Below are positions 2,497 through 13,307 of a stretch of DNA of 35,562 nucleotides, piece after piece. The first letter of the stretch is position 1. The number at the start of each line of letters is the position of its first letter. Source of the DNA: Candidatus Hadarchaeum sp. (lineage in GTDB: Archaea > Hadarchaeota > Hadarchaeia > Hadarchaeales > Hadarchaeaceae); NCBI RefSeq assembly GCF_049969415.1, contig NZ_JBMFOX010000013.1, positions 1 through 35,562 on the forward strand, read 5' to 3'. Position numbers and translations under genes: made by a program. The notes below the pieces were generated by a model. The model was given only the letters and a program-made list of their open reading frames with translations, searched no databases and was not told where the DNA came from.

Positions 2497-3672
2497 ATGG
2501 AAACTGATGTCGTTATAGTTGGTGCTGGTCCGGCCGGATGTTTTGCGGGCAAAATACTGGCAGAACACGGCCTCAGAGTGAAGATAGTCGAAGAACATGC
2601 TGAAGTGGGCAGGCCCGCCTGCTGCGCCGGCATCGTTGGCCTGGAAGGCATCCGAGAGCTCGGAATAAAACCAGGGAAATGGATATTGGGACGACTAAGG
2701 GGTGTTAGGATTTATCCACCCTCAAACGAGCCGGTAGAATTGACAAGGGGGAAAGTTGAAGCGGCAGTGATAAATCGGGCGAATTTTGACCTCTCGCTGG
2801 CCGAGGCCGCAATCAAAGCAGGTGCGGAGTTGTATTTGAACACCAAATGCTTGGGAGTTAACTTCGATGGCGGTCCGGTGGTAAAAACTGACCGCGGTGG
2901 GAAGCTGAAAGCCAGCGTGGTAATGGGTGCCGATGGCCCGCTTTCCGCAGTTGCCCGCAGTTTGGGGCTTTTGGTCAAGAATAGTTACATTAAATGCGCG
3001 CAGGTCGAAACCGTGGCAGATTTGGATGACGATGTCGCCGAAGTTTTTCTAGATAAAAACTTTGCCCCAGGATTTTTTGGCTGGTTGGTAAAAGCCGGCG
3101 ATGTTGCCAGACTGGGCTTGGGCACGACGACGGGAAATCCAGTTCGGCTGCTGAAAACTTTCCTTTACAAGCACCCCGTAATCTCTCGCAGAGTGGGCAA
3201 GATGCTCACCCATCAGTGTGCCAAAGTAATTCCGGAATGTATGTCCCGCAGAATTCAGGAAAAGACGGTGATCTTAGTAGGCGACGCCGCTGGACAGGTG
3301 AAGCCACTTACCGGTGGCGGTATTTATATCGGATTGTCCTGCGCCAAGATTGCGGCCGAAACGGTGATAAAAGCCTTTGATCAAGGTTCGTTCGACGAGC
3401 TCGATAATTATCCGCGGGCGGTAATGCGAAAGTTCGGTACAGAGTTCACCATTGGTGCTCGTGTAAAAAAAGTTTTTGATCGGATGTCAAATGAAGATTT
3501 AGACCTTTTGTCCGCTTTTTTAGACCAGAGTGAGGCTAGGGAGATATTGCTAAAAAATTTTGATTTTGATCACCATGAAAAACTGATTACCGCGCTGATT
3601 TCCAAGGCACCGGAAATTTTGAGAACGTTTGGGGTTAAAAAGGCCTTAAGATACCTCAAGCTTTTAACTTGA
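2497..3672 (+). CDS. Geranylgeranyl reductase family FAD-dependent oxidoreductase
   Basis: VGAGPAG dinucleotide fold, CAG, RANFD, GADG, APGFFGW, LVGDAAGQVKPLTGGGI; GAGGT SD. Confidence 0.9.
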   Translation: METDVVIVGAGPAGCFAGKILAEHGLRVKIVEEHAEVGRPACCAGIVGLEGIRELGIKPGKWILGRLRGVRIYPPSNEPVELTRGKVEAAVINRANFDLSLAEAAIKAGAELYLNTKCLGVNFDGGPVVKTDRGGKLKASVVMGADGPLSAVARSLGLLVKNSYIKCAQVETVADLDDDVAEVFLDKNFAPGFFGWLVKAGDVARLGLGTTTGNPVRLLKTFLYKHPVISRRVGKMLTHQCAKVIPECMSRRIQEKTVILVGDAAGQVKPLTGGGIYIGLSCAKIAAETVIKAFDQGSFDELDNYPRAVMRKFGTEFTIGARVKKVFDRMSNEDLDLLSAFLDQSEAREILLKNFDFDHHEKLITALISKAPEILRTFGVKKALRYLKLLT

Positions 3673-3676
3673 ACCA

Positions 3677-3684
3677 ATAAAAAA
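3677..3684 (-). terminator. U-tract terminator following the putative ncRNA
   Basis: The minus strand reads ...GUCCCCGCC-GC-UUUUUU(AU) immediately after the terminal helix. Confidence 0.45.
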
Positions 3685-3686
3685 GC

Positions 3687-3916
3687 GGCGGGGACTTGAC
3701 CCTTCCAATACTTTTCTAACGAGCTCGCGAACCTCGACCACATCGCTCGCTCGTCATTTTTTCTTGTCAGGGTCTTCTTCCCGCAGCATTTGTCCCATCC
3801 TGTTCTTCCACAGGACTTATCCGCGTCCTTCCCCGGTTTTTAGCCCGGGTTTTTACACGGATCCCCGTTGCCCGTAGGCTCCGGTTCGACCCATTCTGCG
3901 GGCTACCGTCCCCGCC
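3687..3916 (-). ncRNA. Putative ~230-nt structured non-coding RNA of unrecognised family
   Basis: 9-bp terminal helix GGCGGGGAC/GUCCCCGCC, at least 6 further nested helices, C(UACG)G tetraloop, G-U pairs that work only on the minus strand, A-rich linkers, TATA box 25 nt upstream, U-tract downstream, no credible ORF. Confidence 0.75.
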
Positions 3917-3940
3917 AAGATCTTTTATGACGTTTGCGTT

Positions 3941-3957
3941 TATTTAAGTATTTTTTG
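3941..3957 (-). promoter_or_regulatory. BRE/TATA promoter of the putative ncRNA
   Basis: Minus strand CAAAAAATA-CTTAAATA ends 25 nt before the first G of the terminal helix, the same geometry as the tRNA-Leu promoter. Confidence 0.6.
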
Positions 3958-4061
3958 AAAAATGGAGATATCTCCAATTTGGCAATAACGTCCGTTAAAT
4001 GGTTATGGCCGTTGTTTCGACAATTTTTTTTCCGTATGTGATAAAATTTTCACCGATTATA

Positions 4062-5213
4062 TTGCCGGCCAATGTTACTCCCGAGTATAAAAAGGCAGAG
4101 GAACGCTATCTTCAGGCTCGAACGCTAGAGGAGAGGATCAAAGCTACAGAAGAGATGATTCGAGTAGCGCCGAAGCATAAGGGTTCGGAGAAGCTCTTGA
4201 GGACGCTTAAGCGTCGCTTGGCAAAGCTGCGGTTGGAGCTGGAAGAAAAACGGGAGAAGAAAGTTGGTCGCGGTAGCGGGCCCAGTTTTTCGGTGAAAAA
4301 AGAGGGAGCTGCGCAAATAGCGCTGGTTGGACTACCAAACTCGGGCAAGTCAAAAATTCTGCAGGACCTTACTAGCGCTCGCGTCGAGGTCGCCGAGTAT
4401 CCATTCACGACTAGGTATCCGATTCCTGGCATGATACAGTTTGAGGATGTGCAAATACAGCTGGTTGAAGTGCCTGCAATAGTGGAGGGTTCGAGCTATG
4501 GTCGAGGCCTTGGCGCCCGGCCCTTAAGTGTTGCCCGCAACGCAGACGCCATCGCCCTTGTCGTGGACGCTTCCGATGACCCGGTTAACCATATCAAGAT
4601 TTTGCTTAGTGAACTAGACGCAGTCGGGGTCAAGCTGAATTGTAAACCACCAAAGGTCAGCATTGAAAAACGATCCAGTGGCGGCATCGAGGTCAAAGGA
4701 GCCAAACTGGTTGGGGGTGGAGAAGCGGAAATAAAGAGAATACTGCAGGAACATCGCATCCACAATGCTTTCGTGGTAATCGAGGAACCAATCACACTTG
4801 ATGAGTTCGAGGAGGCGCTTTCAGAGTCAAATGTTTATCTTCGCGGTTTTGTTTTACTGACTAAATGTGATTTGCCTAACGCCGCTGAGAAAATAGAGAT
4901 GGTCAAACGTGAGTTTGGGGATTTGCTTGATGTTATCTGCACTGGCGGTAGACCTGAGGATTTAAAGGGGAGGATTTACCAGCAACTTGATCTAATACGC
5001 GTCTACACTAAGAAACCAGATGGGAAGCCGGCCGAACGTCCCCTGGTTTTGCCCAAGGGTTCCACAGTGATGGACGTTGCTCGTTCAGTCCATAAGGACT
5101 TTGCCAAGGGGCTGAAGTTTGCCCGTGTCTGGGGTTCGACTAAGTTTCCCGGACAGCAGGTCACGAGAGACTATGTGCTTGAGGATAAGGATGTAGTCGA
5201 GCTTCATACCTGA
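4062..5213 (+). CDS. DRG/OBG-family GTPase with C-terminal TGS domain (Rbg1/DRG-like)
   Basis: Likely TTG start giving MPANVTPEY; PKHKGSE, GLPNSGKS (G1), YPFTT (G2), TKCD (G4), TGS domain ending VLEDKDVVELH. Confidence 0.9.
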   Translation: MPANVTPEYKKAEERYLQARTLEERIKATEEMIRVAPKHKGSEKLLRTLKRRLAKLRLELEEKREKKVGRGSGPSFSVKKEGAAQIALVGLPNSGKSKILQDLTSARVEVAEYPFTTRYPIPGMIQFEDVQIQLVEVPAIVEGSSYGRGLGARPLSVARNADAIALVVDASDDPVNHIKILLSELDAVGVKLNCKPPKVSIEKRSSGGIEVKGAKLVGGGEAEIKRILQEHRIHNAFVVIEEPITLDEFEEALSESNVYLRGFVLLTKCDLPNAAEKIEMVKREFGDLLDVICTGGRPEDLKGRIYQQLDLIRVYTKKPDGKPAERPLVLPKGSTVMDVARSVHKDFAKGLKFARVWGSTKFPGQQVTRDYVLEDKDVVELHT

Positions 5214-13219: not shown

Positions 13220-13307
13220 TGGTGCGGGGGAGGGGATTTGAACCCCCGAACCCCTACGGGACTGGCTCCTGAAGCCAGCGCCTTCAACCTGGCTTGGCTA
13301 CCCCCGC
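13220..13307 (-). tRNA. tRNA-Leu (anticodon CAG), CCA encoded, no intron
   Basis: GCGGGGG/CCCCCGC acceptor stem, CTGGC-TT-CAG-GA-GCCAG anticodon arm, long variable arm, GGTTCAAATCC T-loop, ACCA end; TATA CTTTAAAG about 26 nt upstream. Confidence 0.97.

Follow-up and report, generated by a model that had tools for sequence, protein, structure and literature searches.

To our knowledge, large structured non-coding RNAs (ncRNAs) are few, and nearly all of those known from Archaea are universal: ribosomal RNA (rRNA), transfer RNA (tRNA), signal recognition particle (SRP) RNA, ribonuclease P (RNase P) RNA and the guide RNAs. The ornate RNAs raiA, OLE, ROOL and GOLLD are bacterial, whereas HgcC is archaeal and shorter than the RNA described here. 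RNAs of such kind have earlier proved to be new ribozymes, cores of ribonucleoproteins (RNPs) or self-assembling particles. Here, we describe an RNA gene of 231 nucleotides (nt) on the minus strand of a 35,562-nt stretch (contig NZ_JBMFOX010000013.1, hereafter the window) from the genome of Candidatus Hadarchaeum sp. (assembly GCF_049969415.1). A first-pass annotation made from the letters had proposed at this place an archaeal gene that stands alone and encodes a stable, structured RNA of a class that it could not name. That core claim stands, as the RNA matches no Rfam family, has covarying homologues and is not a miniature inverted-repeat transposable element (MITE). We are almost certain that the gene is real and conserved and that its structured RNA belongs to a new family. 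The RNA has ten covarying helices, occurs at most six times in a genome and has so far been found only in one uncultured phylum of the subsurface and hot springs.

The minus-strand RNA of 3684–3918 folded with a minimum free energy (MFE) of −117.2 kcal/mol, compared with −72.9 ± 4.65 kcal/mol for 200 dinucleotide shuffles (z = −9.52), and none of the 200 shuffles folded as well. The terminal helix P1 closed a three-way junction, the joiners of which are conserved purine-rich strands, and the remaining helices were arranged in two arms. The elements of the RNA, in window coordinates, are:

3686–3916, minus strand: structured RNA gene of mature length, 231 nt, founding member of the family (covariance model R1, fold z-score, covariation)
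3908–3916 with 3687–3695, minus strand: P1, 9 base pairs, GGCGGGGAC with GUCCCCGCC (MFE fold and RNAalifold)
3780–3902, minus strand: arm 1, comprising P2, P3 and then a multibranch loop with three hairpins (MFE fold and RNAalifold)
3896–3902 with 3780–3786, minus strand: P2, in arm 1
3888–3890 with 3792–3794, minus strand: P3, in arm 1
3865–3884, minus strand: P4 hairpin, CCG-GA-GCC(UACG)GGC-AA-CGG, with a tandem GA/AA loop and a UACG loop
3819–3862, minus strand: P5/P5b, with A-rich loops; AUCCGUGU/ACGCGGAU pair as 3855–3862 with 3819–3826
3845–3849 with 3832–3836, minus strand: CCCGG/CCGGG, enclosed by AUCCGUGU/ACGCGGAU (MFE fold)
3797–3816, minus strand: P6, UCCUGU/ACAGGA stem with a purine-rich loop
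3698–3774, minus strand: arm 2, an irregular rod (MFE fold and RNAalifold)
3769–3774 with 3698–3703, minus strand: P7, GACCCU/AGGGUC, followed by a UGA/GAA loop
3764–3766 with 3706–3708, minus strand: P8, in arm 2
3757–3763 opposite 3709–3716, minus strand: internal loop between P8 and P9, GAAAAAA opposite GAAAAGUA
3749–3756 with 3717–3724, minus strand: P9, followed by a tandem GA
3743–3746 with 3727–3730, minus strand: P10 (the distal rod spans 3717–3756 overall)
3731–3742, minus strand: apical loop containing GUGGUCGAG, at the tip of arm 2

Of 61 related genomes, 40 had BLAST hits to the RNA, and 51 hits were taken. After three truncated hits had been dropped, the 48 homologues were aligned with MAFFT without structural guidance (alignment A1). 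RNAalifold on A1 returned the same helices, with 61 pairs, 45 of which kept pairing through two-sided changes. A trimmed version of A1 without the degenerate copy L057 (alignment A2, 47 sequences) had standard pairs in 98.0% of 2807 cells, against 34.8–45.6% when the 3′ partners were slid by one to three columns. Two-sided changes occurred at 44 of its 60 pairs, against 12–21 for the slid partners; they were found at 3 of the 7 pairs of helix 1 (P1), where 99.7% of cells were paired, at 25 of 34 pairs in helices 2–6 (arm 1) and at 16 of 19 in helices 7–10 (arm 2). All ten helices are supported by covariation. The covariance model R1, built from A2, comprised 232 positions and 60 pairs. Moreover, in 75 distinct metagenome sequences from outside its seed (alignment A3), the column pairs with the highest mutual information were the predicted base pairs. 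A pseudoknot candidate between A3 columns 23 and 254, 97% complementary, was rejected, since one of its two positions already takes part in a pair and the signal tracks the split between the long and short forms described below.

The paired columns contained 215 G-U against 23 A-C cells, and 98.0% of cells pair on the minus strand compared with 90.3% on the other. This excess of G-U over A-C places the RNA on the minus strand, as the first-pass annotation had called it. All the helices listed by that annotation were present at their positions in the MFE fold of 3684–3918, and the covarying homologues that it proposed to look for exist, with two-sided changes at the 44 pairs of A2. Its TATA box about 25 nt upstream and its U-tract correspond to the following two signals:

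3940–3947, minus strand: TTAAATAA, TATA-box-like, read from the sequence; its 3′ edge lies 24 nt before the first G of P1
3679–3684, minus strand: T6 run resembling an archaeal terminator, read from the sequence, two bases after the end of GUCCCCGCC at 3687

In the minus-strand reading of 3500–4100, a spacer of 23 nt separates TTAAATAA from the start of P1 at 3916, and an A-run (3951–3957) lies immediately upstream of the box. A GC-rich stretch opens with GGCGGGGAC at 3916 and closes with GUCCCCGCC at 3687. An octamer with at least seven A/T positions out of eight was present at −40 to −15 in 46 of the 48 homologues, mostly starting at −26 to −32, and 47 of the 48 had a run of at least four T on the 3′ side of the RNA, within the last 20 nt examined. 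The TTAAATAA box probably acts as the promoter. From what is generally known about archaeal promoters, its spacing would put the transcription start at, or a few bases from, the first G of P1, and in consequence the primary transcript would be close to the mature RNA. The RNA stretch is intergenic, the only overlapping open reading frame (ORF) being a 57-codon frame over part of arm 2.

Known families were sought with Rfam 15 (4227 families), taking a score at or above the gathering score of a family as membership. The scan of the whole window at these thresholds gave no family at the RNA; the only Rfam-recognised RNA in the window is a tRNA-Leu (CAG) with a long variable arm at 13220–13307 on the minus strand. 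With permissive filters and E ≤ 10, the region 3550–4050 gave six matches, all to unrelated families and far below their cut-offs. The best E-value was 0.099 (9.7 bits against a gathering score of 55), and no match exceeded 17.5 bits. Two homologues from other genomes likewise gave only unrelated sub-threshold matches, with no recurring family. BLAST and nhmmer searches of the RNA against the whole source genome (1.47 Mb in 138 contigs, 95% complete) returned only its own paralogues. Literature searches on Hadarchaeota ncRNAs and metatranscriptomes and on novel archaeal ncRNAs found no description of the RNA, and neither ‘hadarchae’ nor ‘hadesarchae’ occurs in the main text of an atlas preprint (bioRxiv 10.64898/2026.10.21.760802). 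On the strength of these Rfam and literature searches, we rate the RNA as a new class.

The familiar candidates of comparable kind were rejected one by one. The models of RNase P RNA (RF00373) and SRP RNA (RF01857) did not match at the RNA, and both genuine genes lie elsewhere in the source genome, at C1:28967–29254 (196.1 bits) and C16:17850–18157 (156.9 bits, full model length), respectively. The first-pass annotation had noted that the signatures of both RNAs were absent, which agrees with the Rfam scans; the two checks that it had named, for these RNAs elsewhere in the genome and for novelty by Rfam scan, turned out in its favour, no family having appeared either at its gathering score or as a related match at E ≤ 10. 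The 5S rRNA model (RF00001) failed to match at E ≤ 10, and canonical 5S genes were found at two other places, C6:21605–21725 (93 bits) and C119:401–515 (79.8 bits). A fragment of 23S rRNA is excluded by the lack of model or sequence similarity and by the location of the 23S gene elsewhere, at C19:15670–20342. A Y RNA of a Ro RNP was rejected since PF05731 (TROVE) had no match in the source genome, whereas the same search as a control matched in 2 of 14 genomes. A riboswitch or cis-acting leader is at odds with the downstream gene, which is convergent in the window, and with the T-run after 47 of 48 copies, although a link may exist at the 12 of 66 loci where a family B DNA polymerase gene follows on the same strand. 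A mobile element or MITE, the alternative that the first-pass annotation had itself raised, was rejected in view of three diverged copies (at most 82% identical), conserved synteny and no hits in viral contigs.

The 23S gene of the source genome is peculiar in its own right. The match of 4673 nt, against a model of 2987 positions, holds insertions of about 1.7 kb, and within it, at C19:17851–18453, lies a match to a LAGLIDADG-type ORF of a relative, which suggests an intron that carries a homing endonuclease. The short contigs C68, C73, C74, C80, C84, C85 and C87 carry partial 23S matches that cover the same model regions repeatedly; either the rRNAs of mixed organisms were binned together, or the rRNA operon was assembled in variant pieces.

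R1 matched the window copy over its full length (model positions 1–232) with 247.5 bits, a score that is circular because the window copy is in the model seed. Independent support came from 91 matches in 80 listed metagenome loci outside the seed, and an exact degenerate pattern retrieved 101 metagenome stretches. Among genomes, R1 matched 51 of 65 in the class and 51 of 66 in the phylum Hadarchaeota, with 1–6 matches per genome; 20 of the 26 genomes that are at least 90% complete carried the RNA. The counts per family, with the source genome left out, were 39/45, 6/6, 1/1, 3/3, 1/9 and 0/1.

Outside the phylum, R1 had no match in the 151 genomes sampled from another archaeal phylum, and none that was significant in five other archaeal genomes, where one fragment reached E = 0.34. 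The exact pattern, run over 185,579 species with one genome each, found 51 stretches, of which 43 had Hadesarchaea- or Hadarchaeota-type titles. Six of the eight stretches with other titles were checked and all were identical to loci of Hadarchaeota genomes; for a seventh, BLAST gave no identical match. The pattern had no hits in viral contigs. The RNA family has so far been found only in the uncultured archaeal phylum Hadarchaeota. We must also note that five public records titled as an Asgard-group family (L103, L110, L117, L125 and L128) carry the RNA, three of them being identical to Hadarchaeota loci, and the titles look like a slip between Had- and Hod- names.

The source genome holds three copies: the window copy (C13:3686–3916), a second one at C2:100083–100313 (248.1 bits, 82% identical to the window copy) and a short, more diverged one at C2:85154–85356 on the minus strand (106.6 bits). 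The last lies between the genes for glutamine synthetase and glutamate dehydrogenase, and its T-run follows only about 25 nt after the closing helix (locus L090). Two forms exist in the family, a long one of about 231 nt and a short one of about 205 nt, the latter lacking P10 and the apical GUGGUCGAG loop but retaining all else. Match lengths in the 80 listed metagenome loci reflected both, with 230–234 nt in 56 and 200–209 nt in 24 of the 91 matches. Paralogues within a genome differ mostly in P6 and in the tip of arm 2. Within one genus, nine genomes have the short form about 90 nt upstream of the long form on the same strand, and at such tandem loci (L027/L078, L031, L032, L046, L072, L074, L075, L083 and L088) each copy apparently has a separate A/T-rich box upstream. 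The copy L057, from a relative in the same genus, has lost the 5′ strand of P1, scores 135.9 bits and may be decaying.

Two protein genes flank the RNA in the window, both outside it:

2497–3672, plus strand: FAD-binding oxidoreductase gene, convergent neighbour (Pfam FAD_binding_3, 1.2e-16)
3999–5213, plus strand: GTPase gene with MMR_HSR1 and TGS domains (Pfam), divergent neighbour

The oxidoreductase gene was convergent downstream in 30 of 66 distinct loci and the GTPase gene was upstream in 21 of them, while the short copy of the source genus adjoined a glutamate dehydrogenase gene. In 12 of the 66 loci, spread over three families of the phylum (L038, L051, L052, L056, L058, L059 and six others), a family B DNA polymerase gene followed on the same strand, mostly after a gap of about 35–125 nt. 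This position may be the ancestral one and that in the window a later duplicate. At the closest of the polymerase loci, the T-run of the RNA is the sole A/T-rich stretch upstream of the polymerase gene and may double as its TATA box. The neighbours of the 66 distinct loci and of the three source-genome copies are housekeeping genes, with no recurrent RNA-related or uncharacterised protein gene among them.

Conserved sequence in the RNA is found in internal loops and junctions as well as in stems. The single strands of the junction, GAYGGAAG, GGAAAAAG and GAAGU, are highly conserved. Across 75 distinct environmental sequences, conservation reached at least 80–97% in AACCGnnGCCUAnGGGCnACGGGGAGCC, in the GAAAA and AGUA strands and at several of the junction purines, and the most conserved sequence of the family is located in arm 1. 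In that arm, P4 has the family-level form CCG-GA-GCC-UAMG-GGC-AA-CGG with its tandem purine loop, and P5/P5b has flanking AAAAA and a GAAAAA-type loop. In arm 2, A155–A158, A205, U207 and A208 are invariant, and the internal loop sets an invariant GAAAA opposite (G)AGUA, the 3′ end of AGUA and the 5′ end of GAA each adjoining P8. This loop of AGUA opposite GAA appears to resemble loop E, and by its consensus and geometry it may be a loop-E (sarcin-ricin) motif. Tandem G-A loops recur in P4, between P7 and P8 and between P9 and P10. In rRNA, motifs of such kinds are platforms for proteins.

As a whole, the explanation towards which we lean, and which we hold to be somewhat probable, is that of an independently transcribed structured RNA of about 231 nt that forms a new Hadarchaeota family and serves as a scaffold in trans. 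The stable RNA would act as the folded scaffold of an RNP, in which one or more proteins from genes at other loci attach to its invariant internal loops and junctions. Neither long stretches of antisense pairing nor control over an adjacent gene would be part of its action. The following features suggest this. The invariant sequence lies in internal loops and junctions and not in stems alone; the AGUA/GAA geometry at P8 appears loop-E-like and is accompanied by the tandem G-A loops; and the gene stands alone, its ends closed in a GC-rich helix, with no variable guide-like segments in the conserved loops. The scaffold or RNP mechanism taken by itself is a serious possibility that falls a little short of probable. 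A bolder proposal, according to which the RNA is a very abundant subunit of a hitherto undescribed Hadarchaeota-specific RNP or ribozyme class, either accessory to the ribosome or translation or catalytic with a new fold, seems unlikely to us.

Several points weigh against the scaffold reading and the evidence around it. Nothing that was computed discriminates a scaffold from a ribozyme. Fifteen of the 66 genomes lack the RNA. Five of these are at least 90% complete and gave no match even at E ≤ 1, and in two of the five the oxidoreductase and GTPase genes are adjacent, separated by a spacer of about 50–60 nt without the RNA. A locus otherwise unchanged means that the absence is real and that some lineages can do without the RNA, an argument against a core housekeeping RNP. 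A partner protein was found neither in the neighbourhoods nor by comparing one RNA-positive with one RNA-negative genome. For the latter, the whole RNA-positive genome G023 was set against the whole RNA-negative genome G016: 347 of the 1156 ORFs of G023 had no match in G016, and 142 of the 347 were present in the source genome. The contrast is blunt because the two genomes are as distant from each other as from the source genome (median identity 57% vs 58%). Twenty of the 142 were examined, and the differences amounted only to metabolic gene clusters: three of these resembled pilus-type genes (judged by one member with a class III signal peptide), genes for glycine cleavage and molybdenum-cofactor genes, and a fourth, by subunit sizes alone, a membrane antiporter or hydrogenase. 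MoaC, the one profile tested, was rejected as a partner, being present in 57 of 66 genomes, including all seven of the RNA-negative genus, and so not tracking the RNA. As to covariation, none of 500 shuffles of A2 reached any observed measure, but relatedness inflates shuffle statistics, so the slid-partner control is the weightier of the two. Finally, none of the runs recorded as RNA contains the RNA stretch, and contig depth, a poor measure of expression, was not used for ranking.

Contigs mapped to the gene nevertheless give a weak hint of transcription. Four runs were mapped, two of which, from one study, have the library text METATRANSCRIPTOMIC and were rated ‘RNA? (probably DNA)’. In these two, the RNA gene was covered by 2944 and 851 short contigs that were 85% or more alike, and the summed word depth in the bin 3834–3864 was 2.48 million (X2) and 0.84 million (X3). 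The loose ends of the contigs run on into P1/P2 and P2′/P7 sequences of the family, which identifies them as family members and hints that the RNAs of relatives are abundant in these samples; such contigs cannot give levels, ends or strand. The flanks 3400–3678 and 3927–4300 had no cover in either run, which is not evidence, as the flanks of relatives would not match. One loose end (5 contigs) held the 5′ end of the family, three extra letters and adaptor-like letters; it might reflect a transcript that begins at the first G of P1, but is too thin to use.

Other explanations, in order of falling likelihood, are a natural ribozyme, a ribosome-associated RNA, an RNA-only assembly, a guide RNA, a polymerase leader and a mobile element. 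We regard a ribozyme, with the purine-rich joiners and the multibranch core of arm 1 as its active site for cleavage, ligation or another reaction, as distinctly unlikely. Its case is made by the highly conserved single-stranded junction segments and by a complex fold with no linked protein gene; yet neither the window copy nor the two homologues matched an Rfam ribozyme family, no cleavage site or substrate is evident, and both gene ends fall where the promoter spacing and the terminator put them, which makes self-processing unneeded. A distant, much expanded relative or analogue of 5S rRNA, acting with the ribosome, is improbable: absence from 15 of 66 genomes, near-complete ones among them, would not be expected of a ribosomal component, two canonical 5S genes are present, and the 5S model did not match at E ≤ 10. 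What recalls 5S rRNA is the topology with the AGUA/GAA loop, a CGAACCGGAG stretch reminiscent of the loop C region of the source genome's own 5S, the multiple copies with strong consensus promoters and, as a hint only, the very high contig depth in the two metatranscriptomic-labelled runs. We give the same small chance to an RNA-only assembly or architectural particle like OLE, ROOL and GOLLD, held together by loop-loop contacts between copies. Ornate bacterial RNAs are reported to offer a precedent (10.1101/2024.12.08.627333). The invariant apical loop contains the self-complementary UCGA, the A-rich loops would lend themselves to docking and the search for a partner protein gave none; but at 231 nt the RNA is far smaller than those three, and the short paralogue lacks the apical loop entirely.

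A trans-acting regulatory or guide RNA, pairing with targets through its exposed conserved loops, appears marginally less credible again. Genomes do carry several paralogues that differ mostly in P6 and the arm 2 tip, whereas the conserved loops are identical across paralogues and species, and guides usually vary. The Rfam scans gave no C/D or H/ACA family match, and the 9-nt complement of the apical loop occurred in none of 32 tRNAs and at 37 scattered genome sites with no particular target, a result that is uninformative. A role in cis, with the RNA as leader or processed 5′ element of the gene for family B DNA polymerase and the window copy as a duplicate that has lost this context, is very improbable, even though in 12 of the 66 loci, from three families, the RNA lies directly upstream of that gene on the same strand. 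Each copy has its T-run terminator, the window copy and 30 similar loci face a convergent gene, in some genomes the only copies are not beside the polymerase, and the A/T-rich sequence between RNA and polymerase could be the polymerase's own promoter. Least credible of all is a selfish or mobile element, similar to a MITE or a short interspersed nuclear element, or the remnant of one. As such an element would predict, genomes hold several copies, and between one and the same pair of genes the RNA is cleanly present in some related genomes and cleanly absent from others; but the source genome has only three copies with at most 82% identity, the position is orthologous across genera, compensatory evolution keeps the fold and viral contigs gave no hits; no flanking repeats were seen in the flanks by eye, no formal repeat search having been made.

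Whichever function it has, the RNA is a testable object, with coordinates, a consensus structure, a covariance model of 47 sequences and more than 90 further sequences. The near-complete genomes without the RNA at an unchanged locus supply natural presence/absence contrasts that can be mined for a partner protein. The family is also a warning for annotation, as Hadarchaeota genomes hold an unannotated RNA gene family.

In comparison with known systems, the Y RNA of the Ro60 RNP resembles the new RNA in several ways: both are small and stable, both have a long stem that closes the molecule and a 3′ tail rich in U, and both are dispensable and patchily distributed. It differs in that the source genome has no TROVE-domain protein and the new RNA no Rfam match of the Y RNA type. 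The orphan RNA classes raiA, OLE, ROOL, GOLLD and HgcC were similarly found from sequence alone, with rich covariation, invariant loops, restriction to one lineage and no linked protein gene. All five are in Rfam and none matches the new RNA, the architecture and motifs of which differ.

The likeness to 5S rRNA concerns the overall plan. In both, paired 5′ and 3′ ends close a three-way junction, a topology supported here by covariation, and the 3′ arm of the new RNA is an irregular rod with an AGUA/GAA internal loop that may be loop-E-like; both are multi-copy, standalone genes with their own promoter and terminator. Unlike 5S rRNA, the new RNA is twice as long, carries in arm 1 a four-helix multibranch domain instead of helices II–III, matches the 5S model nowhere at E ≤ 10 and is absent from 15 of 66 genomes. 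From RNase P RNA and SRP RNA it differs in the absence of the CR-I/CR-V and helix-8 signatures and of any model match. Nevertheless, it shares with SRP (7S) RNA (RF01857) and RNase P RNA (RF00373) the size class, the GC-rich and stable character and the paired ends, and the conserved internal loops that serve as protein-binding sites in those two RNAs are the features to which we would liken the loops of the new RNA.

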